Origin: Escherichia coli | GTDB taxonomy: Bacteria; Pseudomonadota; Gammaproteobacteria; Enterobacterales; Enterobacteriaceae | Assembly (NCBI RefSeq): GCF_050320075.1 | Contig: NZ_CP190018.1 | Strand: one strand, 5' to 3' | DNA: 64,000 nt | Part shown: piece by piece, positions 1 through 59,118 of the stretch | Layout: every line of letters begins with the position of its first letter | Position numbering within the stretch: the first letter of the stretch is position 1 | The notes under the pieces: model-generated | Database searches by the model: none | Told to the model about the DNA's origin: nothing | Seen by the model: only the letters and a program-made list of their open reading frames with translations | Made by a program: the position numbers and the translations under genes

Positions 1-1437
1 ATTGCGATAAAGCTGGGTTAATACCGAGCGTTCAAAACGGCTGGTGATTTCGTCCAGCGAACCTTCCATCGCATCTTCGCCCACGGCTACCGTTGCGGCG
101 TCATAATCCGGTAACAAAATATCCTGTGGACGCAGCTCATAACCGTCCAGTTGTGTCAGTGCGCGATAAATAGCGTTCTTTAACTGCCGCACATTTCCCG
201 GCCACGCATAACGCGTAAGTACAGTATTCAGGTCAGCGGCCAGTTTCGGACGCGGCACGCCCTGCTCGTCGGCAAAGCGGGCGACGAACAGCTCGGTTAA
301 CGGCATGATGTCCTGCGGACAGTCACGTAGCGGCGGCAGATTAAGCGTCAACACGTTCAGACGATAATAAAGATCTTCACGGAACACGCCTTTTTGCACC
401 AGTTCGACAAGATTCTTCTGCGTCGCGCAAATCACCCGCACATCGACATGCACCTCATGGTCTTCGCCAACCCGACGGAAAGTGCCATCATTAAGGAAAC
501 GCAGTAATTTCGCCTGCATCCGTGGTGACATCTCACCTATTTCATCCAACAGCACCGAACCACCGTTCGCCTGCTCAAAGAACCCTTTCTTCCCTTCCGG
601 AGCATGACCAAACAGTTCACTCTCGACCGCATCTTCCGGTATAGACGCACAGTTCAGCGCCAGATAGGGTTTGCCCGCGCGTGGGCTTGCCTGATGACAG
701 GCATATGCAAAGAGATCTTTTCCGGTGCCGGTATCACCGGTTATCAGCAATGGCGCGCTTAGCATCGCCAGTTTCTGCGCCTGTTCGACAACATGCTTCA
801 TTTTCGGGCTGACGGCGACAATTTGACTGAAGGCGCTGACGTCCTGGGCGGCGACATTTTGCAACTGACGACCCATACGAATCGTTGATCGCAACATCAC
901 CACCGCACCGGTCAGGACGTGTTGATCATTTTCATCCTGAAGATAAACAGGCGTAATCTCCATCAGGAAATTCTGTCCATTAATAACGACATGCTCGTTA
1001 TGGGAATCCTGCGGTTCGCTTTCCAGCCAGCGTAAAAAATTAAAGCCGTTAATCAATTGCGCGGCGGTATGGTTGCGCAGGCGATCCAATTTTTGCCCAA
1101 AAAGCTGACAGCTCGCCGGGTTCGCCATATCCACTTTGCTTTTCATATCGACAGAGAGCACAGGTTCAGGCAACGCTTCCAGTAACGCGCTCAACGCCAG
1201 ATGCTCACGTTCAGAAGGCATCCACGGGACAGTACGGACATCGGTAACACCTGCAATACGGCGTATTTCGGCCATCAGACTGCTGAAACTCTCAAACTCC
1301 AGTTCAGCAAAATTGAGGTAGATTCGCCCAATGGGATCAATCTCAATACCGCGTAAATCAATGCCTCTTAGCACGAGTAGATCGAGTAATTCGCGGGTCA
1401 GACCGAGTCGGTCTTCACAAAAGACTTCCAGACGCAT
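1..1437 (-). CDS. tyrR: Transcriptional regulator TyrR, sigma-54-interaction-domain family; N-terminal ~479 codons, 3' end lies beyond the window start
   Basis: Reverse-strand translation from the ATG near 1437 reads MRLEVFCEDRLGLTRELLDLLVLRGIDLRG..., matching the TyrR N-terminus; the frame stays open to position 1; position upstream of ycjF matches K-12 synteny. Confidence 0.9.
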   Translation of the reverse strand, partial: MRLEVFCEDRLGLTRELLDLLVLRGIDLRGIEIDPIGRIYLNFAELEFESFSSLMAEIRRIAGVTDVRTVPWMPSEREHLALSALLEALPEPVLSVDMKSKVDMANPASCQLFGQKLDRLRNHTAAQLINGFNFLRWLESEPQDSHNEHVVINGQNFLMEITPVYLQDENDQHVLTGAVVMLRSTIRMGRQLQNVAAQDVSAFSQIVAVSPKMKHVVEQAQKLAMLSAPLLITGDTGTGKDLFAYACHQASPRAGKPYLALNCASIPEDAVESELFGHAPEGKKGFFEQANGGSVLLDEIGEMSPRMQAKLLRFLNDGTFRRVGEDHEVHVDVRVICATQKNLVELVQKGVFREDLYYRLNVLTLNLPPLRDCPQDIMPLTELFVARFADEQGVPRPKLAADLNTVLTRYAWPGNVRQLKNAIYRALTQLDGYELRPQDILLPDYDAATVAVGEDAMEGSLDEITSRFERSVLTQLYRN

Positions 1438-1507
1438 GGGAACCTTCACCTGAAAAAAGAACAATTAATATGATGATATGACACTATTTGGATAGCAGGA
1501 AGGTTTC

Positions 1508-1525
1508 TGTCAACAATCATTGACA
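1508..1525. promoter_or_regulatory. Candidate TyrR box (TGTCAA-N6-TTGACA palindrome) in the tyrR promoter region
   Basis: Palindrome tgtcaacaatcattgaca seen in the tyrR–ycjF gap; resembles the TGTAAA-N6-TTTACA TyrR-box consensus; tyrR is known to be autoregulated. Coordinates approximate. Confidence 0.5.
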
Positions 1526-1584
1526 CAAAGACGGAAAAACGGGCACTTCGGCGTAAAGATATCCGGTCAGCACCCGATATTGCA

Positions 1585-2646
1585 TTATTTTTCGCTGGGC
1601 GTTTTGCCTTTTTGCAGAGTTTCTTTCACCTGACCGATAAGCTGACGACGGAAATCCCCGAGGCGTGGCTTGTCATCGTCAATCCACGGCAGCGGGCGGC
1701 AAAGCTCCATAGCTTTAATCCCCAGTCGTGCCGTCAGAAGTCCTGCACCAATCCCCTGAGCTGCGCGGGTAGACAAACGCGCAGCGAGATCTTGCGACAT
1801 CCAGTCCATCCCCACTTCGCGAACCAGTTCGCTGGCTCCGGCGAAAGCGATATTCAGCAATACCAGCTTGAACAGGCGCAAACGGCTGTAATACCCCAGT
1901 TCAATGCCATACAGCGTGGCGATGCGATTAATCAAACGCAGATTGCGCCAGGCGATAAATGCCATATCCACCAGCGCCAGCGGGCTAACGGCGATCATTA
2001 ACGTTGATTCCGCTGCCGAACGGCTGATTTCGCGCCGTGCCTGGGCATCTAAAACCGGCTGGACCAGATGAGCATACAGGCTGACCACTTCACGATCGTT
2101 CTGCGTTTCATGGATTGAGGCATACCAGCGTTGCAGCGCCGGATGCGACTGATCAATACCCGCCTGCTGCGCCAGTTTTTCGCAGAATGCACGGCCTTTA
2201 CCCGTGCCGTGACTGTGCAACAAATCGCGCGCTTCGTCGCGTTCATGGGCGCGCTGTCGCAAGCGCCATAAGCGCCGCCACTCTGTTACCACAGAACCTA
2301 CGCCAGCGCCGATAATCAATGCCCCAGCGGCACATCCACCCAGCGCCACCCAGTCCTGGGTTTGCCAGGCGTTCATTGTCCACTGTACACCCTGCCCGAC
2401 AACGCTTGCGCCAAACAGAGCCAACCCGCCCATCACCATTTTGCGCCACAGGCTGCGTTTCGGACGTAACGCTGCATCCATTACCGCTTCAACTTGCCCC
2501 TCTTCTTCCTGCGCTTCATCGAGCGTGGCCGGGGCAAAATTTTGCGCCTGATTTTCGTCAAAGGTCTGCTGCACCCTGAATTTTGGATTCTGATCGACCT
2601 CCAGTGGACCGTCGAAATCAATACGTGGTTTTAACGGTTCGGTCAT
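1585..2646 (-). CDS. ycjF: UPF0283 inner-membrane protein YcjF
   Basis: 353-aa ORF, same length and N-terminus ([13 protein letters not shown]...) as K-12 YcjF; overlaps the ycjX stop by 4 nt. Confidence 0.9.
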
Positions 2647-4040
2647 CGCAATTTATCTCCTATTAAAAATTCCAGCGCAGCATCAAGGCGAATATGCGGC
2701 AGCGGTTTGTCGACATCCATCACCTGCGGACGAAACGCCTCAAACTGGAAGCCTTGCTTATCCCAGAACGCCTGACCAGGCAAACGTGCGGGAACTTCGC
2801 CAGGATAAACAGTGAGCGGTGCGCCATCACTGAGTCGATTACCGCGCAGCGCCGGGATTTTCTCACCGTTAACATCAATAATGCCGCTGGTGGTCGCCTG
2901 AACTGACGCCAGCCCCAGGCAGTCCATGCTGATCCCTTCGAACGCCGCATTTTGCCAGGCATCCTGAATTAGTTGTTGCAGTAATGAAACCATATTGGCG
3001 TGCTGATCGATGGTCACATGGTCTGCTTTAGTCGCAGCAAACAATAGCTTATCGATAACCGGCGAAAACAAACGCCGGAACAGGGTTCGCTGCCCGTAGT
3101 GGAAACTTTGCATCAGCTGCGTCAGCGCCAGACGCATATCATTAAATGCCTGTGGCCCACTGTTGAGAGGCTGCAGGCAATCCACCAGCACAATCTGGCG
3201 GTCAAAGCGCAGAAAATGATTCTTATAGAACCCCTTCACCACCTTCTCGCAATAATAATTAAAGCGCTCGCGCAGCATTCCGGCATTGGTATGCTTATCG
3301 GCCTGCGCCAGTTTGGACTCGCCCCAGGCATCGACATCCGGCCACGGGAAGAATTGCAGCGCGGGTGCTCCTGCCATATCTCCCGGCAAGACAAAGCGCC
3401 CAGGCTGAATAAAGTGCAACCCCTGCTGTTTGCAGTGGTGGAGATACTCGGTCCAGGCGGCGGCAATGTCTGCCAGCCGGTTTTCGTCGGCAGGCGCTAG
3501 CGGGTCCAGCCCTTCGCACATCATTCGCCATTTCGCCGACCATTCGCCGCGCTGACCATTGAGTAAGCCCGTCATCTGGCGCGACCAGCTTAAATAGTCC
3601 TGCGCCAGCATCGGCAGGTCGAGCAACCATTCGCCGGGGTAATCCACAATTTCCAGATACAGCGTGGAGGTGTCCTTAAAGTGGCGTAGCAGCGAATCGT
3701 TCGATTTAAAACGTAACGCCAGGCGAATTTCACTGACGCCGCGCGTAGGCGTCGGCCAGGCGGGAGGATCGCCATATAACTGCGCCAACCCTTCATCATA
3801 GGTGAAGCGCGGAATGCCAAAGTCACGCTGGGGAATGCGTTTTACGCCCAGCAGGCGCTCTTCACGCACCGCACTTAAAAGCGGCAAACGTGCTCCGGCA
3901 TGAATATTGAGCAACTGATTAACCATCGCGGTGATAAACGCTGTTTTGCCGCTGCGGCTAAGTCCGGTTACAGCGAGGCGCAGATGTCTGTCGACACCCC
4001 GATTCACCAGCGCATTAAGTTCATTTTTAAGTCGCTTCAT
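2643..4040 (-). CDS. ycjX: P-loop NTPase YcjX (DUF463)
   Basis: 465-aa ORF; Walker A motif GLSRSGKT near the N-terminus; synteny with ycjF. Confidence 0.9.
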
Positions 4041-4158
4041 TGCTGTCCTGTGCCAGAAAGCTGTAGAAAGGATTAGATACTGGAGATAATAATGTGGGTT
4101 AATTTTGATTTATCAAATGAGTAAGCGGCGTTGTTTACACCGCTCAATAAGTAATTTG

Positions 4159-11419: not shown

Positions 11420-11568
11420 TATGACTCCTGTTTCACGTCTATCAGATATATGCAGTTTGTGAACGTCAGGGCGCAGAGATCCCCGGGCCGTATGCCCGTT
11501 TATTTCTGGCGACATTCTTTATAGATTGCCGGGCGCATTGCGCTTACCCGGCTTACAGAACAAAAAGA

Positions 11569-22216: not shown

Positions 22217-22253
22217 CACCTCATCCTGACAGGGCCCCCCTCAGGATGAGGTG
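22217..22253. terminator. Bidirectional intrinsic terminator shared by sapF and the convergent MFS gene
   Basis: Perfect 13-bp inverted repeat cacctcatcctga / tcaggatgaggtg around an 11-nt GC-rich loop, lying exactly between the two convergent stop codons. Confidence 0.6.
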
Positions 22254-22257
22254 TTCA

Positions 22258-23421
22258 TTACTTTTGATTGTCGATTCTGGTGAGAGCAACCAGCAATGCC
22301 AGCGTATAACACACCGTAATTGCCAGACTCATTTTTAACAGTGTTTCTCCGCCAAACCCCGACAATGGCGCGGCTATACCGCCGAAGACAAACATGCTCA
22401 TCCCCATCAACGCAGACGCCGTTCCAGATTCCTGCGTCCCTACTCCACTCATAGCCTCTGCCCCGCCAACAGTGCCGATGCCGCTACAAAATGCAATAGT
22501 GAAAAATAATGCCACCAGTGCCGGAATGGGCAATTGTGTCCATGCGCATAAGACCGTGAGCAATGCACACAAAATTGCCGCTATCAGGCCACCTCGCAAC
22601 AATGTCATCGCGTTAATCCGTCGCGCCAGGCGCGAGAAGATCCATGAAGCAATGATAAGTCCGATGCCGTTAAGGCCAAACACCAGGCTAAATTGCATTG
22701 GACTAAAGCCAAATTCCTTCTGCAACACGAACGACGAAGAGCCGATATATGCAAACAAACCGGCCAGCATAAAACTTTGAATCAGGCAAAAGCGCATAAA
22801 ACGGCGGTTCTGCACCACGCTTCGTCCGGTTAATAGCAATGATGAGCCCCTTTTATTTTCTGGCAAGGTCTCATTAATAAATAACAGGCAGCCCAGCAAC
22901 AGTACGGTGCTAATTTCAGCCATTACCCAGAATAAAGTGCGCCAGTCAAAAGTGCTGACAATGTACCCGCCCAGCACTGGCGACAACACCGGTGCCAGGC
23001 CATTCACCGTCATTAACAGCGCAAAAAACTGGGTCAACGTTACTCCCTGATATTTGTCACGAGCAATAGAACGAGAGAGCACCGAACCACCCGCCCCCGC
23101 GATCCCTTGAATAAAACGCCAGACCACCAGCCAGTAAATATTGTTCGTTGTCGCGCACAAAATGGAAGAAACAATAAACAATAGCAACGACAAGATTAAC
23201 GGACGTTTACGCCCTATTTTGTCGCTCAGAGGGCCAAATAACAGTTGTCCGACGCCAAGACCGATCAGCGATGCGGTCAGGGTTAATTGCGTTATGGTCG
23301 TGGTTGCCGCCAGTTGCTCAGACATCTCCGGCAAAGCCGGCAAATAAAGATCGGTACACATCGGGCCGATACCGGCTAAAAGACCAAGAATCAATGCCCA
23401 TGAAAGAGAGACTCTAGCCAT
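22258..23421 (-). CDS. MFS drug:H+ antiporter, Bcr/CflA (DHA1) family
   Basis: 387-aa, ~12-TM hydrophobic ORF; N-terminal motif region (…DLYLPALP…; …GPLSDKIGRKRP…) resembles E. coli Bcr as I recall it; begins 8 nt after the OMF stop. Not part of the K-12 sapF–fabI interval as I remember it. Confidence 0.75.
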   Translation of the reverse strand: MARVSLSWALILGLLAGIGPMCTDLYLPALPEMSEQLAATTTITQLTLTASLIGLGVGQLLFGPLSDKIGRKRPLILSLLLFIVSSILCATTNNIYWLVVWRFIQGIAGAGGSVLSRSIARDKYQGVTLTQFFALLMTVNGLAPVLSPVLGGYIVSTFDWRTLFWVMAEISTVLLLGCLLFINETLPENKRGSSLLLTGRSVVQNRRFMRFCLIQSFMLAGLFAYIGSSSFVLQKEFGFSPMQFSLVFGLNGIGLIIASWIFSRLARRINAMTLLRGGLIAAILCALLTVLCAWTQLPIPALVALFFTIAFCSGIGTVGGAEAMSGVGTQESGTASALMGMSMFVFGGIAAPLSGFGGETLLKMSLAITVCYTLALLVALTRIDNQK

Positions 23422-23429
23422 ATTATTCC

Positions 23430-24803
23430 TTACTTGAGTGATGACATGCCGCCGCCCAGCGACTGCCAGAGCGTGATTCGGTTTGTAAAATCAGTCAGTT
23501 GTAGTGCCAGCAGCGCCTGCTGTGCGCTCCACAAGCTGCGCTGCGCCGTCAACACGGTCAGGTAATCACCAACACCCGCCTGATAGCGACGCAAGCCAAC
23601 ATCGACCGTTTGTTGCTCAGCTTTAACATACTGGCGCTGTGCATCCAGTTGCTCTTCAAGCGTGGTCCGCCGCGCCAGTGCGTTAGCGACATCTTTAAAT
23701 GCGCTCTGAACGGTTTTTTCATAGGTGGCAATGAGTCCACGCTTTTGTGCTTCTGCGTAACGAAGCTGCGCCAGATTACTTCCGCCAGTGAACAGCGGTA
23801 ATGTGACCGATGGCGTAAATGACCAGATCTGCATTCCGTGGCTGAACAACGACGACAATGCTTCACTGCCAACACCAGCGCTGGCAGTCAGCGAAATCGT
23901 CGGAAAAAAGTTAGCCCGCGCCGCGCCAATATCGGCATTGGCGCTCTTCAAATTATGTTCCGCTTCCTGGATATCCGGGCGACGCAGCAGAACGTCAGAT
24001 GACACTCCCGCAGGAACCAGACTTATCATCTGTTCCGGCAGGCTTTCCAGTGTTCCCGGTAGCAAATTTTCCTCAAGCGTTGTACCTGCCAGTAAGTTCA
24101 GCGCATTTTTATCCTGCATCACGTGTGTCTGATAGCTGGCAACGCTGGCGCGCGCTTGCTGATAAACACTCATCGCCTCACTGACATCTGTCGCTGCCGC
24201 CGTGCCAACCTGTTGCTGGCGCTGGATAATTTTCAATGAGTTTTCTGCACTGGCCATCGTTTCTTTTGCCAGGGCCAGGTTGCTGTTATCAGCCGCCAGT
24301 GTCAGCCAGGCGGTGCTGATTTCAGCAATCAGCGTTAAACGAGTGTTCTGGGCTGTAAATTCACTGGCAAGCCAGGTTTCCCGCGCCGCCCGAGATAAAC
24401 TCTGATTACGACCAAACAGATCTAACGTAAAACTGGACACCGTGCCGTCAGCCTCGGCAGTGGTTTCCGTACCATTCGCCAGCGAACGACTGCGGGTTGA
24501 ACTTAAGGCCGCATTCACCGTCGGGAATAACGACGCATTAGTTTGCCCATAGAGCGCCCGTGCTGAGTCAATATCAGCAATCGCTTTTTGCACATCGCGG
24601 TTACTGTTCAGTGCAATAGTCACCACCTGCTGCAATCGGGGATCGTGGATCACCTGCTGCCAGTCATGGCTGATTGCCTTTCCCTGGCCCTGTGCTCCCG
24701 GCAAGGTCGCCGGGATTGGGGATTCAGGCGTGCTGTAGTGGGGCTCGAGCGAGACACATCCCGCACTCAACAGCACCAGAAAAATAAGAGAACGACGCAA
24801 CAT
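23430..24803 (-). CDS. Outer-membrane efflux lipoprotein, OprM/NodT (TolC-superfamily) type
   Basis: 457 aa; lipoprotein signal with lipobox (MLRRSLIFLVLLSAGC); length and composition typical of OprM-type outer-membrane factors; begins 3 nt after the RND stop. Confidence 0.8.
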   Translation of the reverse strand: MLRRSLIFLVLLSAGCVSLEPHYSTPESPIPATLPGAQGQGKAISHDWQQVIHDPRLQQVVTIALNSNRDVQKAIADIDSARALYGQTNASLFPTVNAALSSTRSRSLANGTETTAEADGTVSSFTLDLFGRNQSLSRAARETWLASEFTAQNTRLTLIAEISTAWLTLAADNSNLALAKETMASAENSLKIIQRQQQVGTAAATDVSEAMSVYQQARASVASYQTHVMQDKNALNLLAGTTLEENLLPGTLESLPEQMISLVPAGVSSDVLLRRPDIQEAEHNLKSANADIGAARANFFPTISLTASAGVGSEALSSLFSHGMQIWSFTPSVTLPLFTGGSNLAQLRYAEAQKRGLIATYEKTVQSAFKDVANALARRTTLEEQLDAQRQYVKAEQQTVDVGLRRYQAGVGDYLTVLTAQRSLWSAQQALLALQLTDFTNRITLWQSLGGGMSSLK

Positions 24804-24806
24804 AAC

Positions 24807-27800
24807 TTACTCCTGACGGCGCGGTTTACCGGCAAACAAACGTTTCACCAGTACAAAAAACAGAGGAACAAAGAAAATAGCCAGCAACGTAGCGGTCAGC
24901 GTACCGCCAATAATGCCCGTACCAATGGCGATGCGGCTGTTCGCCCCTGCGCCGGTTGCTATCGCCAGCGGCATTACCCCCGCAATAAACGCCAGCGAGG
25001 TCATGATGATTGGGCGTAAACGAGTCTGCGCCGCGCGTAATGCCGCACGACTCAAGGAATAGCCCTCTGCAACCGCCGCTTCAGCAAATTCCACAATCAG
25101 AATGGCGTTTTTCGACGACAAGCCGATAGTGGTTAATAGCGCCACCTGGAAGTAAACATCGTTGTTTAAATCACGCATCCAGGCCGCCAGCGCCGCGCCA
25201 AGAAGCCCCAGAGGGATCACCAGAATGACCGAGAACGGGACTGACCAGCTTTCGTACAGTGCTGCAAGGCAGAGGAAAACCACCAGAATAGAAACTGCAT
25301 ACAGACTCAATGCCTGACCGCTGGCCAGTTTCTCCTGCAATGACAAACCACTCCAGGCCCAGGTTGTTCCCGCAGGAAGACTGTTTGCCAGTTCCTCCAT
25401 TTTTGTCATTGCATCGCCGGAACTAAAGCCAGTCGCATTTTCCCCCTGAATTTCATAGGCTGCAGAACCGTTGTAGCGCACCAGTCTTTCCGGTCCATAC
25501 AGCCAGCGGGTGGTTGCAAAAGCAGAGAATGGTGTCATGGCGTTATCGCTACCGCGCACAAACCATTTACCTAAGTCTGACGGCGTGGAACGAAATTCAC
25601 TGTCGCCCTGAATGTAGACTTTTTTCACACGACCACGGTCAATAAAGTCATTCACATAAGTACCGCCCCACGCACTGGACAGGGTGTCGGTGACATCATT
25701 CAAACTCAACCCTAATGACACCGCTTTATTACTATCAATATCTACCTGCAATTGCGGCATTTGTGGCAAATCATTGGCACGCACAGAATGTAACTCCGGA
25801 CTTTGATTCGCTTTTTCTATCAACTGATTACGCATTTGCAGTAGTGTTTCGCGATCGGTTCCACCGTTAGCTAACAATTCAAACGTAAAACCATTGCTTT
25901 GCCCCAGCCCATCAACGGCTGGCGGCGTCATCGCAAATACCGTGGCATCACGAATTGTGCCCAGCTCTTTGGTTGCCCGTAGGGCGATAGCCTGGGCGGT
26001 GTTTTCTGCCCCTTTACGTTGAGACCAGTTTTTCAACGAAACAAACGCCATCCCGGTGTTCTGTCCGCTGCCGCTAAAACTGAAACCATCAACGGTAAAA
26101 ATGACATCGGTATTTGCTTTCTCATTAATCAGGAACCAGTCAACAATCTGGCGATTCACTTCTGCTGTACGGGCAGCGGTCGCCCCGGCCGGCAGCGTGT
26201 ACTGCACCATGATTTCGCCCTGGTCTTCAGTGGGTAAGAAACTGCCCGGCAGTTTCCACATCATCAGGGCCATTCCACCACCCAGTACGACATAAAGCCC
26301 CATCGTTCGAGCAGCACGGCGCAGGACATAAATTACGCCTCGCTGATATTTATCTTCAGTACGGCGGTAAAAGCGGTTAAATGCGCCGAAAAAGCCTTTT
26401 TTATGTGGCGGAACATGCTGGAGGACGGAACCGCACAGGGCGGGAGTCAAGGTCAATGCCACTACCACGGAAAGCAGCATTGCGGAGATAATGGTTATCG
26501 AAAACTGACGATAAATTACCCCCGTAGATCCCCCAAAGAAGGCCATAGGCAGGAATACGGCTGACAACACCAGCGCAATGGCAACCAGTGCGCCAGAAAT
26601 CTCGCCCATTGATTTTTCCGTGGCTTCACGCGCGGGCAACCCTTCGTCACGCATAATACGTTCGACGTTCTCCACCACCACAATGGCATCGTCCACCAGC
26701 AAGCCGATCGCCAGCACCATTGCAAACAACGTCAGGGTATTAATCGAATAGCCAAACAACGCAAGAACGCCGAATGTGCCCAGCAAAACGACGGGGACAG
26801 CTAACGCCGGAATCAGTGTGGCACGCAGGTTTTGCAGGAATAAATACATCACGCAAACCACCAATACGATGGCTTCAAACAGCGTCTGAATTACGTCCTC
26901 TACAGAGATTTTAATAAATTCAGTGCTGTCTTTCGGGTATGCGATGTCGTATCCCTGCGGCATGTTCCGCTGGAATTCGGCAATCTTATCCTTGACCAGC
27001 GTCGCCGTATTCAGCGCATTCGCACCGGGCGAAAGCATTACAGCAACCCCGGCAGACGGGTGACCGTTAAGTTTGCCGATAGCGGTATAATCTTCACTGC
27101 CCATCTCAACGCGAGCCACATCTTTTATACGAACAACTGCGCCGTCTGACTGGCTTTTCACGATAATATTTTTGAACTGATCCACCGTCTGCAAGCGAGA
27201 CTGCGCACGTACCGTTGCGGTCAGTTGCTGAGTATTCGGTGAAGGCAATGCCCCTATTTTCCCGGCAGTAACCTGCACGTTTTGCGCTTCAATAGCACTT
27301 TGCACGTCTGAAGGCATTAGCGAGTAAGACGCCAGTTTGGCCGGGTCAAGCCAGATGCGCATAGCGTATTCCGCGCCAAAGACTTGCAGACTCCCCACAC
27401 CTTCAACACGCGCCAGCGGATCCTGAACGTTACTAACCAACCAGTCGGCGATATCCGAACTGGAGGCTTTGTCAGTGGTGTCATACACGGCAGCAATCAG
27501 CAAAAAGTTGCTTTGTGATTTCTCCACCGTAACACCCGTTTGCTGCACTTCGCTGGGTAGACGCGACTCCGCCTGCTGAATTTTATTCTGCACCTGAACC
27601 TGTGCAGTATCTGGATCGGTACCTTGTTCAAAGGTCACATTAATACTGACCGAACCATCAGAGCTGCTGGTTGAGCTGAAATAGAGTAAATTATCAAGCC
27701 CAGTGAGTTGTTGCTCGATAACCTGAGTCACGCTGTTCTCCAGCGTTTCGGCAGAAGCACCAGTATAAGTGGCTGAAATTTTAATGGTCGGTGGCGCAAC

Positions 27801-27914
27801 GTCAGGATATTGCGCGACGGGCAATGTGCGAATAGCCAGAATCCCCGCCAACATAATCAAAATGGCGATAACCCAGGCAAAGACCGGGCGGCGAACAAAA
27901 AAGCGCGAAAACAT
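24807..27914 (-). CDS. RND multidrug efflux permease, HAE1 family (AcrB/MexB-like paralog)
   Basis: 1035 aa; long blocks recognisably similar to AcrB (e.g. AVPVVLLGTFGVLALFGYSINTLT…LLVDDAIVVVENVERIM…; …LYESWSVPFSVILVIPLGLLGAALAA…); start overlaps the MFP stop by 1 nt. Confidence 0.9.
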   Translation of the reverse strand: MFSRFFVRRPVFAWVIAILIMLAGILAIRTLPVAQYPDVAPPTIKISATYTGASAETLENSVTQVIEQQLTGLDNLLYFSSTSSSDGSVSINVTFEQGTDPDTAQVQVQNKIQQAESRLPSEVQQTGVTVEKSQSNFLLIAAVYDTTDKASSSDIADWLVSNVQDPLARVEGVGSLQVFGAEYAMRIWLDPAKLASYSLMPSDVQSAIEAQNVQVTAGKIGALPSPNTQQLTATVRAQSRLQTVDQFKNIIVKSQSDGAVVRIKDVARVEMGSEDYTAIGKLNGHPSAGVAVMLSPGANALNTATLVKDKIAEFQRNMPQGYDIAYPKDSTEFIKISVEDVIQTLFEAIVLVVCVMYLFLQNLRATLIPALAVPVVLLGTFGVLALFGYSINTLTLFAMVLAIGLLVDDAIVVVENVERIMRDEGLPAREATEKSMGEISGALVAIALVLSAVFLPMAFFGGSTGVIYRQFSITIISAMLLSVVVALTLTPALCGSVLQHVPPHKKGFFGAFNRFYRRTEDKYQRGVIYVLRRAARTMGLYVVLGGGMALMMWKLPGSFLPTEDQGEIMVQYTLPAGATAARTAEVNRQIVDWFLINEKANTDVIFTVDGFSFSGSGQNTGMAFVSLKNWSQRKGAENTAQAIALRATKELGTIRDATVFAMTPPAVDGLGQSNGFTFELLANGGTDRETLLQMRNQLIEKANQSPELHSVRANDLPQMPQLQVDIDSNKAVSLGLSLNDVTDTLSSAWGGTYVNDFIDRGRVKKVYIQGDSEFRSTPSDLGKWFVRGSDNAMTPFSAFATTRWLYGPERLVRYNGSAAYEIQGENATGFSSGDAMTKMEELANSLPAGTTWAWSGLSLQEKLASGQALSLYAVSILVVFLCLAALYESWSVPFSVILVIPLGLLGAALAAWMRDLNNDVYFQVALLTTIGLSSKNAILIVEFAEAAVAEGYSLSRAALRAAQTRLRPIIMTSLAFIAGVMPLAIATGAGANSRIAIGTGIIGGTLTATLLAIFFVPLFFVLVKRLFAGKPRRQE

Positions 27915-29035
27915 CAGGCGTTGCCTCCATTAGCCTGAACTTCAACAGCCTTGACGGTCTGCCCTGAAGTGACTTTGGCAGAACCTTCAACAATCAGTCG
28001 GTCGCCGTTGTGCAGGCCGTTCAGCACCAGCCATTTATCACCATACGTTTCTCCCGTTTCGAGCGTTCGCTGCTCTACTTTATTGTCTTTATTCACCACC
28101 AGCGCAGTTGCATTGCCTTTAGCATCGCGCGTGACGCCCTGTTGCGGCGCGAGAATAGCGTCTTCCATCACGCCTTCATCGACACGAGCGCGAACAAACA
28201 TTCCCGGTAATAACTGCTGTTGTGGATTGGGGAAAATCGCCCGTAATGTCACCGAACCGGTAGACTCATCTACAGCGACTTCGGTGAGTTCCAGACGCCC
28301 TTTTTCGCTGTAGGTTGTGCCATCTTCCAGAATAAGTGAGACGCTCATGGTGTCACTGTTGGTCGCCAGTGACTGTTTACGCAGACGTAATAAATCGACA
28401 CTGGAGCGAGTGAGGTCGACATACATTGTATCCAGACCACGAACAGTCGTTAACGCTGTATCTTGCGACGCGGTCACCAGTGCGCCAGGGGTTACCGACG
28501 AAATGCCAATGCGCCCTGAAATCGGTGCGGTTACCGTGGTCCAGTCAAGATTAATGCGCGCAGTTTCCAGTGCGGCTTTTTTCGCCTCTACACTGGCTTT
28601 ATCTTGTGCACAGGTAGACTGAGCATCATCAGCATCCTGTTGTGAAACACCGTTCTCTTTCACCAGTCGGGCATAACGCTGCGCTTTCTGGCAATCGGCT
28701 TTTACCAGTGCCTGTGCTTGTTGTAATGCTGCCCGAGCTTCATTCCATGCAGCCTGATAACTGGCCGCATCAATCTGGTAGAGCGGCTGTCCAGCCTTGA
28801 CCAGATCACCTTCCTTAAATAAGCGTTTCTGGATAATTCCCCCAACCTGCGGACGTACTTCAGCACTGAGCGCAGCACTGGTGCGTCCGGTTAATTCACT
28901 GACTACCGAAACCGGTTGAGATTTGACTGTAACAACGCCGACTTCTGTTTCTGACGGGGATGAATTGTTACTTTGCGTATTATCACAACCCGATAAGAGC
29001 AGCATTGCCACTACAGATGTTGCTATATACTTCAT
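27914..29035 (-). CDS. Periplasmic adaptor (membrane-fusion protein) of the RND pump, AcrA/MexA-like lipoprotein
   Basis: Track ORF extends to 29068; the in-frame ATG at 29035 gives MKYIATSVVAMLLLSGCDN… (lipoprotein signal) with ggag 7–10 nt upstream. Confidence 0.8.
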   Translation of the reverse strand: MKYIATSVVAMLLLSGCDNTQSNNSSPSETEVGVVTVKSQPVSVVSELTGRTSAALSAEVRPQVGGIIQKRLFKEGDLVKAGQPLYQIDAASYQAAWNEARAALQQAQALVKADCQKAQRYARLVKENGVSQQDADDAQSTCAQDKASVEAKKAALETARINLDWTTVTAPISGRIGISSVTPGALVTASQDTALTTVRGLDTMYVDLTRSSVDLLRLRKQSLATNSDTMSVSLILEDGTTYSEKGRLELTEVAVDESTGSVTLRAIFPNPQQQLLPGMFVRARVDEGVMEDAILAPQQGVTRDAKGNATALVVNKDNKVEQRTLETGETYGDKWLVLNGLHNGDRLIVEGSAKVTSGQTVKAVEVQANGGNA

Positions 29036-29183
29036 TATTTTCTCCAGGGTGAGAAATACCCTCCTCATTAAAATTAATGAGGATATGTCAGGGATATTCA
29101 GTTATAACGAACCCGCATCGCGAAATGAATTTCGCAATGAAATAAGGGGGATTAATATCCCCCGCTATTGGTTAATTCTGTTC

Positions 29184-29750
29184 TTATTTATTTATCAACA
29201 TACTAACAATATCCTGATATATTTCCTGCAGATGTTGTGGATCGCTTTTTTGCGGTGTTAAACGACGATAAACCGTACCTTCCATCATGGTAGCAAACAC
29301 TTCAACGCAGCAACGAATGTGCTCGTCGCTAAGATGGGGATGCATTCTTTTCATATGTGCACAACCGTTAGCGAACATTCTGGCGTCAGCTTCTTCAAGC
29401 ATTGCCATAACCCGCGGGTTGCGTGTGGCTTCTGCAGCCACTTCCAGCATCAGCGCGTCGTCGTCCTCATTTAAGGATTTACGCAAGGCAAGGACTTCCG
29501 GGAAGTGATCGGTACGCGCGTCAATGTCCATTTGGGCAATACGAAAGTCGATGATACGGCGAACCATCTCTTCAATAATGGCATCTTTGTTGGCGAAGTA
29601 ACGATATATCTGACCCACGCTAAGCTGAGCTTCGCTGGCAATTTGCGACATACTGGCGGCATGAAACCCGCAGCGACGAAAACACCGACGGGCGGCGTTA
29701 ATGATTTCATCCTGACGCTGTTTGTGGCGTATCTCCAGTTTGCTGGTCAT
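29184..29750 (-). CDS. TetR/AcrR-family transcriptional regulator
   Basis: Track ORF extends to 29849; the in-frame ATG at 29750 (MTSKLEIRHKQRQDEIINAARRCFRRCGFHAASMSQIASEAQLSVGQIYRYFANKDAI…) places the TetR HTH signature near the N-terminus, ~188 aa. Start choice is an inference. Confidence 0.7.
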   Translation of the reverse strand: MTSKLEIRHKQRQDEIINAARRCFRRCGFHAASMSQIASEAQLSVGQIYRYFANKDAIIEEMVRRIIDFRIAQMDIDARTDHFPEVLALRKSLNEDDDALMLEVAAEATRNPRVMAMLEEADARMFANGCAHMKRMHPHLSDEHIRCCVEVFATMMEGTVYRRLTPQKSDPQHLQEIYQDIVSMLINK

Positions 29751-30227
29751 TTCTGTCTCCTGGCCTATCACTTGGTGAGAATGATCGTTCTCATTTTTGC
29801 TGATTATACGTTTCTCCAAAGTAATGGAAAGTATTTTTATCTTATTCATGGTGCATATTCTGATAATGAAGAGATTGTGGAGATTCTGTGAAGATAGTTG
29901 ACAATATTAAGTTGGGGTCAATTCATCAGAAAGGCTGCTACTTGTTGTCGCCAGTTCTGTTTTCATCATCAAACTTATCGGAGCTAATACGAATAGTTTC
30001 AGAGTCAGATTCTATAAGATATTCCCCCAACCTACCCCTTGCAGGCGTCAAGAGTAGATAACGCAAAATGCTCTGTACCTCAGCTTCTCTCCGGTACAGA
30101 AAGCGCAACTATAGCCACCCACAGCCAGGTTGATTATAATAACCGTTTATCTGTTCGTACTGTTTACTAAAACGACGAATCGCCTGATTTTCAGGCACAA
30201 CAAGCATCAACAATAAGGATTAAAGCT

Positions 30228-45432: not shown

Positions 45433-45595
45433 AGCTCCTCCTTAATGACAGGGTTGCGAAGCCCTGATTCTCTTCAGGGTGAATATTAAAGATAACACAA
45501 ACATCGCGTAACGATTTGATAACAACCCAAATTGATAAAAGAGGAGAAAGCTTGTGGCAAAACAAATGAAAACCCCGCCGCAGCGGGGTCAGGGA

Positions 45596-45691
45596 TCAGT
45601 GAGTAATGATCCAGAGGAGTTCGGCCCAGAAGAGCATCGACAGAGAAAATGCGCCCATCCAGGACCAATATTTCATATTTGTGTTGATCAT
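45596..45691 (-). CDS. Candidate 31-aa hydrophobic small protein (MINTNMKYWSWMGAFSLSMLFWAELLWIITH)
   Basis: Short ORF below the track's length cut-off, found by hand in the acnA upstream region; an AAGGTG-like motif lies ~7 nt upstream; single predicted TM helix. Whether it is translated is unknown. Confidence 0.35.
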   Translation of the reverse strand: MINTNMKYWSWMGAFSLSMLFWAELLWIITH

Positions 45692-45804
45692 AGGCTACAC
45701 CTTTAACGGTTATTACTTTGTGTTGAGATAACTCAACCTGTTATTGCTGCGGTGTATTAAAAGCCCTGTAATTCATTAAAAATGGGTAATAAGAATGATG
45801 ATAA

Positions 45805-53496: not shown

Positions 53497-53501
53497 GTGA
53501 A

Positions 53502-53531
53502 AGCACCTCAAAAGAAGCCTCTTGAGGTGCT
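53502..53531 (+). terminator. btuR intrinsic terminator hairpin
   Basis: Perfect 10-bp stem agcacctcaa / ttgaggtgct with an 11-nt loop, followed by ttt; the IS1 end starts about 6 bp downstream. Confidence 0.6.
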
Positions 53532-53592
53532 TTAATCGGTAATGGTGCCAACTTACTGATTTAGTGTATGATGGTGTTTTTGAGGTGCTCCC

Positions 53593-53868
53593 GTGGCTTC
53601 CATCTCCATCAGTTGTCCCTCCTGCTCAGCTACTGAAGGCGTGGTGCGTAACGGTAAAAGTACTGCCGGACATCAGCGCTATCTCTGCTCTCACTGCCGT
53701 AAAACATGGCAACTGCAGTTCACTTACACCGCTTCTCAACCCGGTACACACCAGAAAATCATTGATATGGCCATGAATGGTGTTGGATGCCGGGCAACCG
53801 CCCGCATTATGGGCGTTGGCCTCAACACGATTTTACGTCACTTAAAAAACTCAGGCCGCAGTCGGTAA
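53593..53868 (+). CDS. insA: IS1 InsA (transposition inhibitor / N-terminal part of the transposase)
   Basis: 91 aa, [43 protein letters not shown]…; differs at a few positions from the InsA sequence I recall (V4I, D15E). Confidence 0.9.
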
Positions 53869-54290
53869 CCTCGCGCATACAGCCGGGCAGTGATGTGATT
53901 GTCTGCGCTGAAATGGACGAACAGTGGGGCTACGTCGGTGCTAAATCACGTCAGCGCTGGCTGTTTTACGCGTATGACAGGATACGGAGGACGGTTGTGG
54001 CGCACGTCTTCGGTGAACGCACTCTGGCCACACTGGAGCGTCTTCTGAGCCTGCTGTCGGCCTTTGAGGTCGTGGTATGGATGACGGATGGCTGGCCGCT
54101 GTATGAATCCCGCCTGAAGGGAAAGCTGCACGTAATCAGCAAGCGTTACACTCAGCGCATTGAGCGACATAACCTGAATCTGAGACAACATCTGGCAAGG
54201 CTGGGACGGAAGTCACTGTCGTTCTCAAAATCGGTGGAGCTGCATGACAAAGTCATCGGGCATTATCTGAACATAAAACACTATCAGTAA
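53787..54290 (+). CDS. insB: IS1 InsB (transposase C-terminal part, expressed as an InsAB' fusion by -1 frameshift)
   Basis: 167-aa ORF in the -1 frame relative to insA; contains the A-run region where IS1 frameshifting is known to occur. Confidence 0.85.
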
Positions 54291-54358
54291 GTTGGAGTCA
54301 TTACCGCTTCAAATGAAGAAAAGGCCCCGCAGGGCCTTTATTTTATACTTATCTTAAA

Positions 54359-59003: not shown

Positions 59004-59048
59004 ATGAAAGCAATTTTCGTACTGAAAGGTTGGTGGCGCACTTCCTGA
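59004..59048 (+). CDS. trpL: trp operon leader peptide
   Basis: atgaaagcaattttcgtactgaaaggttggtggcgcacttcctga encodes [14 protein letters not shown] with the tandem Trp codons. Confidence 0.9.
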
Positions 59049-59089
59049 AACGGGCAGTGTATTCACCATGCGTAAAGCAATCAGATACC

Positions 59090-59118
59090 CAGCCCGCCTA
59101 ATGAGCGGGCTTTTTTTT
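59090..59118 (+). terminator. trp attenuator (3:4 terminator hairpin plus U-run)
   Basis: cagcccgcctaatgagcgggc followed by tttttttt, ~20 nt upstream of trpE. Confidence 0.9.

Follow-up and report, generated by a model that had tools for sequence, protein, structure and literature searches.

The closest described system is the chromosomal eefRABCD operon of Escherichia coli, named in 2008 in strain SMS-3-5 and characterised in 2025-2026 (Pugh et al., Microb Genom 2026, PMC12817139; Virulence 2025, PMC12482432). It is located between sapF and fabI, and the gene set described there (PMC12817139) is the same as ours. Its carriers belong to E. coli phylogroups B2, D, E, F and G. The eefABC genes of Klebsiella aerogenes and K. 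pneumoniae, reported by Masi et al. 2005 and Coudeyras et al. 2008 as cited in PMC12817139, encode an adaptor, an RND permease and an outer membrane factor (OMF) orthologous to E. coli EefABC.

The earlier note on this DNA had regarded an MFS exporter gene placed in one transcriptional unit with an RND pump as departing from the textbook. There is, nevertheless, a precedent in E. coli K-12, and the name eefRABCD has been in use since 2008. The MFS gene mdtD lies within the K-12 RND operon mdtABCD-baeSR, where this distal gene (product MdtD/IceT) is co-transcribed and dispensable for the drug-resistance phenotype of the RND pump (PMC4462101). The mdt operon has two RND subunits, lacks an OMF gene, uses TolC and is controlled by the two-component system BaeSR, whereas eef has its own OMF and a TetR repressor. 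MdtD probably belongs to another MFS subfamily than EefD. The likeness between the two operons would be one of function only, an analogy.

We examined a window of 64,000 nucleotides of E. coli DNA. Positions 22258-24803 are eefC and eefD, the distal pair of the chromosomal operon eefR-eefA-eefB-eefC-eefD. Five same-strand genes follow one another in the order TetR, adaptor, RND, OMF, MFS; they occupy the chromosomal sapF-fabI site in place of K-12 ycjD, and the sequence upstream of eefR contains an exact match to the EefR operator. Many RefSeq E. coli chromosomes match the arrangement sapF / MFS-OMF-RND-MFP-TetR / fabI with 100% identity across 8 kb, and the allele of the source strain shares 98-100% identity with those of other E. 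coli. Species, site, gene order and operator all coincide with those of the published eefRABCD (SMS-3-5, PMC12817139, PMC12482432), so this is the same locus, with no substantive difference. The identities of E. coli Eef proteins to their Klebsiella counterparts also agree with published values. In K-12, the counterpart of the 7.9-kb distinguishing segment measures 651 bp and contains ycjD together with REP/boxC-like repeats.

We read the locus as an EefR-controlled five-gene operon for two co-regulated pumps that share part of their substrate range and are non-obligate partners; we give this reading a probability of about 0.9. Publications already cover the operon and its repressor, the co-transcription of its genes and the infection-associated E. 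coli lineages in which it occurs; the locus is real but ordinary.

Table 1. Features of the eef locus, in coordinates of the window.
Feature	Position	Strand	Basis
Hairpin, 13-bp stem, convergent sapF/eefD spacer	22217..22253	.	RNA fold
Segment distinguishing eef-positive strains from K-12, 7.9 kb	22223..30104	.	sequence comparison; same conclusion in PMC12817139
eefD, DHA1 MFS exporter, Bcr/CflA subfamily, last cistron, 387 aa	22258..23421	-	ORF and profiles; RefSeq WP_001551021.1
eefC-eefD junction, 8 nt, GGAATAAT	23422..23429	-	sequence
eefC, NodT-type outer-membrane-factor lipoprotein, 457 aa	23430..24803	-	ORF and TIGR01845
eefB, RND permease, HAE-1 (AcrB/AcrD-like), 1035 aa	24807..27914	-	TIGR00915, 1554 bits
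eefA, periplasmic adaptor, 373 aa	27914..29035	-	ORF and profile
Terminator-like stem-loop, GGGGGATATTAATCCCCC then TTATTTCATT, eefR-eefA spacer	29146..29163	-	fold
eefR, TetR-family repressor, first cistron, 188 aa	29184..29750	-	PF00440; published function
EefR operator palindrome TGAGAACGATCATTCTCA	29776..29793	.	minus-strand reading identical to EMSA-verified site, PMC12482432
Candidate PeefR, sigma-70-like, TTTCCA + 16-nt spacer + TATAAT, 10/12 matches	29803..29830	-	consensus match only

The eefD product scores 280 bits against TIGR00710 (Bcr/CflA; cutoff 200.9) over residues 7-378 of 387, which assigns it to this subfamily, and PF07690 (MFS_1) spans its full length with 172 bits. Motif A (GPLSDKIGRKRP) is present, and the nearest solved structures are EmrD (2GFP, E = 2e-26) and MdfA. 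A crude hydropathy scan gave overlapping segments that would fit roughly 11-12 helices; the published homology model has a 6+6 helix arrangement (PMC12817139). Judged by curated cutoffs, EefD belongs to none of the equivalogs TcaB (316 against a cutoff of 475), Bcr (227 against 303), EmrD (163 against 479), PunC (163 against 430) and MdtL (131 against 417), and its identity to Bcr is about 30% (PMC12482432). In its full-length MFS_1 domain and TIGR00710 score it resembles Bcr, EmrD and MdfA, single-component DHA1 drug/H+ antiporters of E. coli. The genes of these three stand alone, while eefD sits inside an RND operon.

The upstream cistrons are tightly packed, eefA stop and eefB start overlapping by 1 nt and eefB and eefC being separated by 3 nt. 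EefC scores 372 bits against TIGR01845 (NodT; cutoff 210) and its N-terminus MLRRSLIFLVLLSAGC includes a lipobox, read from the sequence, as in NodT-type lipoproteins. On the minus strand, the eefC stop codon TAA (23430-23432) is followed by the junction and by the eefD ATG (23419-21); the gap is exactly 8 nt, as had been noticed earlier, and a Shine-Dalgarno-like AAGGA overlaps the eefC stop. This short junction is consistent with co-transcription of the two genes, as is the lack of any operator or promoter match ahead of eefD.

Published experiments bear out the proposal of the earlier note that the MFS gene closes the RND operon as its final cistron. RT-PCR products cross every junction of eefR-A-B-C-D, and deletion of eefR raises eefD mRNA 27-fold, together with eefABC; the co-transcription evidence comes from a de-repressed mutant of ATCC 35218, a strain other than the source of our sequence (PMC12482432). 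It has therefore become hardly tenable that eefD is a separate transcription unit, read from a promoter within the 3´ end of eefC and only adjoining the RND operon. The RT-PCR product spanning the C-D junction essentially refutes this for E. coli, and eefD is de-repressed although none of the loci has an EefR operator near it. The 8-nt spacer also speaks against it, as does a consensus scan that found no sigma-70-like site for eefD on the minus strand inside eefC, although the scan weighs little either way because its 12 promoter-like matches in total did not stand out from shuffles (9.0 +/- 3.1). What a separate unit has in its favour comes from other genera, where eefD is lost or kept independently of eefABC and where longer C-D spacers leave room for a terminator and a promoter. 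Outside Escherichia these spacers measure 33-157 nt (510 nt in Phytobacter; 33-50 nt with a GC-rich hairpin in Klebsiella, as against 8 nt in E. coli), and in the majority of loci they hold a GC-rich stem-loop (-17 to -20 kcal/mol). A C-D junction of 8 nt is confined to Escherichia and represents a derived state, a new but minor observation.

The placement of the EefR operator points in the same direction as the five-gene operon reading. We scanned 50 loci across genera and found the operator in 43, one copy per locus and always 5´ of the first gene; in these 43 loci it was never present in the C-D spacer or before eefD, and the remaining 7 loci are truncated or distant. Klebsiella loci have no EefR homologue beside eefA, a GNAT gene and an unrelated-looking TetR gene lying upstream instead, but the operator is kept about 220 nt upstream of eefA. 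In our locus, the candidate PeefR lies directly upstream of the operator, consistent with the promoter predicted in PMC12482432. The stem-loop between eefR and eefA (-13.9 kcal/mol, z = -2.9), which has a counterpart at a similar place in Kluyvera, may to judge by its sequence act as an attenuator. Because of this hairpin, and because sequences upstream of eefA are required for the phenotypes (PMC12482432), the operon may contain a second promoter or a point of attenuation.

A strong bidirectional hairpin had been proposed to end the MFS gene. The hairpin itself is real: its arms CACCTCATCCTGA (22217-22229) and TCAGGATGAGGTG (22241-22253) fold with -31.3 kcal/mol (z = -4.7), 0/200 shuffles fold as well, and the structure fills the 48-nt spacer from the sapF stop (22209) to the eefD stop (22258). 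That it works as a bidirectional terminator is unproven, since a U-tract is absent on the eefD strand and K-12 has a counterpart. The minus-strand sequence after the hairpin, CAGAACAC, has no U-run, so that eefD has the stem of a Rho-independent terminator and lacks the run on the transcribed strand; the T-rich tail (TTCATTACTTTTG) is found on the plus (sapF) strand only. A terminator scan listed just a 5-bp sub-stem here, on the plus strand. Eef-less K-12 carries a closely similar hairpin after sapF, differing by one compensatory pair, and on these two grounds we rejected the hairpin as an eef-specific terminator. We infer the site of the eef transcript 3´ end.

What the two pumps do has been addressed with plasmids and deletions. 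The plasmid pBReefD alone gives 4-fold MIC increases, and the MICs of sanguinarine, chloramphenicol, tetracycline, erythromycin and clindamycin are raised by both pBReefD and pBReefABC (PMC12482432). Ethidium efflux is slower in an eefD deletion (PMC12817139). Published substrate ranges conflict, however, as Pugh et al. found MICs of clinical antimicrobials unaffected by deletion or expression of eefD or eefABC (PMC12817139), in contrast to the MIC increases in PMC12482432.

Of the two explanations put forward in the earlier note, co-regulated pumps with overlapping substrates match the published MIC and eefR-deletion data (PMC12482432), while two-stage export has found no support so far. In its obligate form, the latter would have EefD move substrates from cytoplasm to periplasm and EefABC expel them across the outer membrane, the genes being linked since neither module is useful alone. 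The principle is established for single-component and RND pumps (PMC4338810, PMC4822809), and the Escherichia junction would favour fixed co-expression. Against this, pBReefABCD equals pBReefABC, with no synergy for any drug tested, and either module is active alone on plasmids (PMC12482432); ethidium accumulation does fall further with both plasmids, but the extra fall is slight and not significant (PMC12817139). Taking these data together with the survival of each module without the other in several genera, described below, we consider obligate two-stage export unlikely.

Next, we examined the distribution of the genes. Among 5426 complete E. coli genomes, eefD is present in 2043 and eefABC likewise in 2043, and 2037 genomes contain at least 80% of an 8-kb query spanning both. 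The co-occurrence check suggested earlier thus came out positive, with no exception detected within the species, as two-stage export would also predict. The eefABCD synteny extends to Klebsiella, Raoultella, Kluyvera, Enterobacter, Kosakonia, Pseudocitrobacter and Phytobacter. In K. pneumoniae ATCC 13883, adaptor, RND permease and OMF are 78%, 87% and 74% identical to E. coli Eef proteins, and in six named species and one MAG of Klebsiella the gene after eefC is an eefD orthologue (68%). Pairwise distances of EefD follow those of EefA, EefB and EefC (r = 0.76-0.83), correlations that are merely consistent with co-inheritance because they are confounded by species phylogeny.

Some E. coli eef copies are recorded as plasmid-borne. 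One such record is 4.9 Mb long, and in a 385-kb record, the sole one inspected, sapABCDF and fabI-yciW-rnb flank the operon. These copies look like chromosomal sequence carrying a plasmid label and were set aside as evidence of mobility.

Outside E. coli, the two modules come apart. The earlier note held that an MFS gene at this locus without RND genes would refute its reading of a common operon; such loci are seen in other genera, though not in E. coli. An eefR-eefD pair without eefABC occurs in Kluyvera genomosp. 3, K. georgiana, Kosakonia sacchari, a soil MAG and three Mangrovibacter species, and, conversely, eefRABC or eefABC without eefD occurs in Trabulsiella, Superficieibacter and one E. 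cloacae record. The eefR-eefD loci of Kluyvera and Kosakonia are deletions, because they nest inside eefRABCD clades; eefABC was lost at least twice within these clades with eefR-eefD retained, which again argues against obligate two-stage export. The spacer of Kluyvera genomosp. 3 is not a simple join of R-A and C-D spacers. Only its last ~17 nt, including the Shine-Dalgarno region, resemble the C-D spacer of K. sichuanensis, and the end-points of the deletion are not definable because the 5´ part is not recognisably related. This separability of MFS and RND modules across Enterobacteriaceae is new but minor.

A different history, in which eefR-eefD is an ancestral TetR-plus-MFS unit and eefABC was inserted later between regulator and transporter, is suggested by Mangrovibacter. 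In the three species of this outgroup, EefD and EefR are 48% and 44% identical to ours, the two genes are separated by 3 nt and preceded by the operator, and eefABC was not found within 10 kb; small TetR-plus-pump units also typically begin with a co-oriented TetR gene. The nested Kluyvera and Kosakonia loci are, however, losses, Mangrovibacter could be a third one, and our sample was seeded on EefD and hence biased. We therefore regard this order of events as possible but doubtful. Somewhat more speculative still is the view that EefR, operator and EefD form a conserved core, complete in Mangrovibacter and kept each time eefABC was deleted, with RND and OMF genes as inserted cargo, Escherichia alone having removed the inter-cistronic hairpin and thereby coupled translation of EefD to EefC. 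If true, it would imply selection for fixed-ratio co-production and for sequential export of a native substrate.

Under the preferred reading, that of two co-regulated pumps, a single EefR-repressed promoter upstream of eefR, with the operator listed in Table 1, would give rise to a five-gene mRNA. EefABC would form a tripartite RND pump similar to AcrAB-TolC, with a NodT-type channel of its own, and EefD an independent 12-TM proton-antiport MFS pump of the inner membrane. In Escherichia, translation of eefD is probably coupled to that of eefC through the short junction and the Shine-Dalgarno motif overlapping the eefC stop. The two pumps would be co-regulated, with overlapping substrates, and neither would depend on the other. 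Co-transcription, EefR repression, operator binding and the phenotypes of the individual pumps were published by others; the present comparison adds the anatomy and identity of the locus, the co-occurrence data, the position of the operator and the finding that the modules come apart in other genera.

As a discovery, the locus carries little weight, and its remaining value is comparative. The 8-nt junction and the hairpin-containing spacers offer simple constructs for probing the effect of operon architecture on the ratio between the pumps. Separability of the modules, a 5´ operator kept even where eefR has been lost and a junction derived in Escherichia argue for co-regulated, independently functional pumps.

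Five co-oriented minus-strand genes were recognized in the window by ORF listing and profile searches, and together they constitute the operon eefRABCD. The genes eefA and eefB overlap by 1 nt, eefB and eefC are 3 nt apart, and 8 nt separate eefC from eefD. Since junction sequence and ORFs agree, the coordinates, strand and 8-nt spacing that the earlier note gave for the MFS gene are exact.

Features of the eef locus and other elements located in the window
Feature	Coordinates	Strand	Remarks
eefR, TetR family	29184-29750	-	188 aa with RefSeq start
eefA, RND adaptor	27914-29035	-	ORF listing, profile search
eefB, AcrB/AcrD-like RND permease	24807-27914	-	1035 aa
eefC, NodT-type OMF lipoprotein	23430-24803	-	457 aa
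eefD, Bcr/CflA-subfamily MFS	22258-23421	-	387 aa
EefR operator	29776-29793	-	identical to the EMSA-defined sequence
Terminator-like stem-loop	29146-29163	-	T-rich tail
Palindrome	29062-29083	-	22 nt
sapF/eefD hairpin	22217-22253		13-bp stem
Insertion relative to K-12	53497-54357		861 bp, btuR/rluB interval
sRNA STnc180	45562-45764	-	Rfam gathering-threshold match, 201.6 bits
trp operon leader	59025-59118	+	Rfam gathering-threshold match, 93.1 bits

Many RefSeq E. coli chromosomes match the 8-kb region at 100% identity, with sapABCDF and fabI-yciW-rnb as its two flanks. These flanks are common to K-12 up to 22222 and from 30105 on; the K-12 empty site measures just 651 bp and contains ycjD together with REP/boxC-like repeats. 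The operon owes its name to the 2008 genome paper on SMS-3-5 (according to PMC12817139 and PMC12482432). Pugh et al. (Microb Genom 2026; PMC12817139) surveyed ~19,000 assemblies; strains carrying it belonged to phylogroups B2, D, E, F and G, and its position was invariably the fabI/sapF interval, where other strains carry ycjD; its functional characterization appeared in Virulence in 2025 (PMC12482432). The exact locus has already been published in detail, and the finding of an MFS gene within an RND operon is correct but known.

The window differs from K-12 elsewhere too. The btuR/rluB insertion encodes IS1-like InsA (91 aa) and InsB (167 aa) ORFs. At 1-4139 (junction near 4140) pspE leads straight into ycjX-ycjF-tyrR, and ycjM, ycjN, ycjO, ycjP, ycjQ and onward, located 3' of pspE in K-12, are missing at this place. 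Around 11520-11523, the puuR-puuC intergenic region is devoid of ~120 bases present in K-12 (K-12 1362517-1362639). The STnc180 and trp leader matches are expected in this chromosomal region.

That eefD is the last cistron of the RND operon, as the earlier note proposed, is borne out by published RT-PCR products spanning all five eef junctions; RNA-seq likewise found eef genes the most up-regulated (PMC12482432), so that the read-through experiments suggested there are already in print. The sequence agrees with this membership in its 8-nt spacer, in operator placement and in the lack of any promoter-like match on the minus strand inside eefC (in a weak consensus scan). The EefR operator TGAGAACGATCATTCTCA, defined by EMSA (PMC12482432), occurs once in the window and precedes the eefR ATG by 26 nt, with a sigma-70-like match TTTCCA-16-TATAAT (10/12) directly upstream of it. 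In each of the 43 related loci that yielded an operator, it precedes the first gene; none has it before eefD.

The eefR-eefA spacer contains the terminator-like stem-loop right after eefR and the palindrome TCCTCATTAATTTTAATGAGGA just 5' of the eefA ribosome-binding site; Kluyvera has structures in similar places. They may act as attenuators of read-through or as binding sites for another regulator, either of which would fit the published remark that phenotypes need sequences upstream of eefA (PMC12482432).

Among 5426 complete E. coli genomes, separate searches gave equal totals of 2043 for eefD and for eefABC, and 2037 genomes matched at least 80% of the 8-kb query covering both. Across genera, the comparison took in a single genome for each species with an EefD alignment, searched by tblastn with all Eef proteins and supplemented by neighbourhoods of EefC homologues and one plasmid record. 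Complete eefRABCD is present in four Escherichia species, Enterobacter soli, E. hormaechei, most Raoultella, several Kluyvera, Pseudocitrobacter, two Kosakonia and Phytobacter. Six named Klebsiella species, one Klebsiella MAG, R. terrigena and Enterobacter sp. 10-1 have eefABCD without adjacent eefR, and those loci extending that far keep the operator ~220 nt upstream of eefA. The palindrome was seen without adjacent eefR in comparison loci L016 (at ~220 nt), L018, L020, L021, L024, L026, L034 and L039. In these eefR-less loci the operator either is an orphan or answers to a regulator whose gene lies elsewhere.

In other genera the two modules are also found apart. Kluyvera genomosp. 3, K. georgiana, Kosakonia sacchari, a soil MAG and three Mangrovibacter species possess eefR-eefD without eefABC; Trabulsiella odontotermitis, Superficieibacter and one E. 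cloacae record possess eefRABC or eefABC without eefD. In that E. cloacae record yicS comes 120 nt after eefC; E. hormaechei has eefD between these two genes. In neighbour-joining trees of EefD and EefR, Mangrovibacter is the outgroup and the Kluyvera and Kosakonia eefR-eefD loci nest within eefRABCD clades, which indicates that eefABC was deleted secondarily at least twice. Distribution and trees together show that the MFS-RND linkage is common and old, yet neither module needs the other.

Several eefRABCD records are labelled plasmids. NZ_CP141085.1 (385 kb) has sapABCDF on one side of the operon and fabI-yciW-rnb on the other, NZ_CP134663.1 is 4.9 Mb, the size of a genome, and CP054253.1 is a 252-kb E. 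coli record; all three are typed non-mobilizable. From the context of the first and the size of the second, the E. coli records look chromosomal, and the plasmid-mediated spread of eefRABCD suggested in print may rest on mislabelled or misassembled records. The E. cloacae record pAVS0889-b (IncFIB-typed, 90.8 kb) carries eefRABC-yicS-lacI-PTS, with eefD missing and an eefC-yicS gap of only 120 nt, in surroundings that match those on the E. hormaechei chromosome.

The E. coli eefC-eefD junction reads TAA-GGAATAAT-ATG, and an AAGGA motif there overlaps the stop codon of eefC. Among the loci compared, only Escherichia has the 8-nt junction (GGAATAAT, GGAATAGT, GGAGCAGT); in the other genera the spacer measures 33-157 nt, and 510 nt in Phytobacter. 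Most of these longer spacers contain one GC-rich stem-loop (7-8 bp, -17 to -20 kcal/mol), its sequence varying between genera and its pairing preserved; none of the non-Escherichia loci compared has a good U-run after it. Some spacers hold boxC/REP-like inserts: GC-rich GGGAGAGGGTTAGGGTGAGGGG-type repeats were observed in Kluyvera sichuanensis, Pseudocitrobacter and Phytobacter (L010, L022, L023, L051), and such repeats also flank ycjD at the K-12 empty site (L002 ~3700-3930). We infer that in other genera this stem-loop may tune mRNA stability or expression of the distal gene, and that its probable loss in Escherichia would have given tight coupling.

At the other end of eefD, its stop (22258) and that of sapF (22209) are convergent across a 48-nt spacer, nearly filled by a hairpin (-31.3 kcal/mol, z = -4.7). 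A strong hairpin is thus present, as the earlier note stated; its role as a bidirectional terminator is at most putative, sequence reading revealing no U-tract after it on the eefD strand. K-12 has a near-identical hairpin directly 3' of sapF, CACCTCATTCTGACA...TGTCAGAATGAGGTG (L002 ~4305-4265, minus strand), differing by one compensatory pair (T-A to C-G) and in the loop. The element is more aptly called a structure at the sapF end and the edge of the variable segment; lying exactly at this edge, it may also mark a recombination or indel boundary.

Profile evidence places EefD among DHA1 MFS antiporters: it has a full-length PF07690 match, a TIGR00710 score above cutoff and motif A GPLSDKIGRKRP, its nearest solved structures are EmrD and MdfA, and profile searches matched it to no named pump as an equivalog. 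Published phenotypes conflict. In one study pBReefD raised MICs of sanguinarine, chloramphenicol, tetracycline, erythromycin and clindamycin 4-fold and pBReefABC gave 8- to 32-fold rises, with pBReefABCD no higher (PMC12482432); Pugh et al. found no MIC effects, but ethidium efflux was slower in an eefD deletion and, with both plasmids, accumulation fell further, though not significantly (PMC12817139). An obligate two-stage relay from EefD to EefABC, one of two options raised initially, has its principle established for other pumps (PMC4338810, PMC4822809) and may still operate for a native substrate. The lack of gain with both pumps and the separability of the modules favour the other option, co-regulated independent pumps with overlapping substrates. 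Nor is the arrangement, which the earlier note did not regard as textbook, without precedent: in K-12 the RND operon mdtABCD likewise ends in an MFS gene, whose product MdtD/IceT the RND phenotype does not require (PMC4462101).

What is added to the published picture of eefRABCD is incremental: an Escherichia-specific junction, patterns of module loss, an orphan operator in Klebsiella and doubts on "plasmid-borne" copies.
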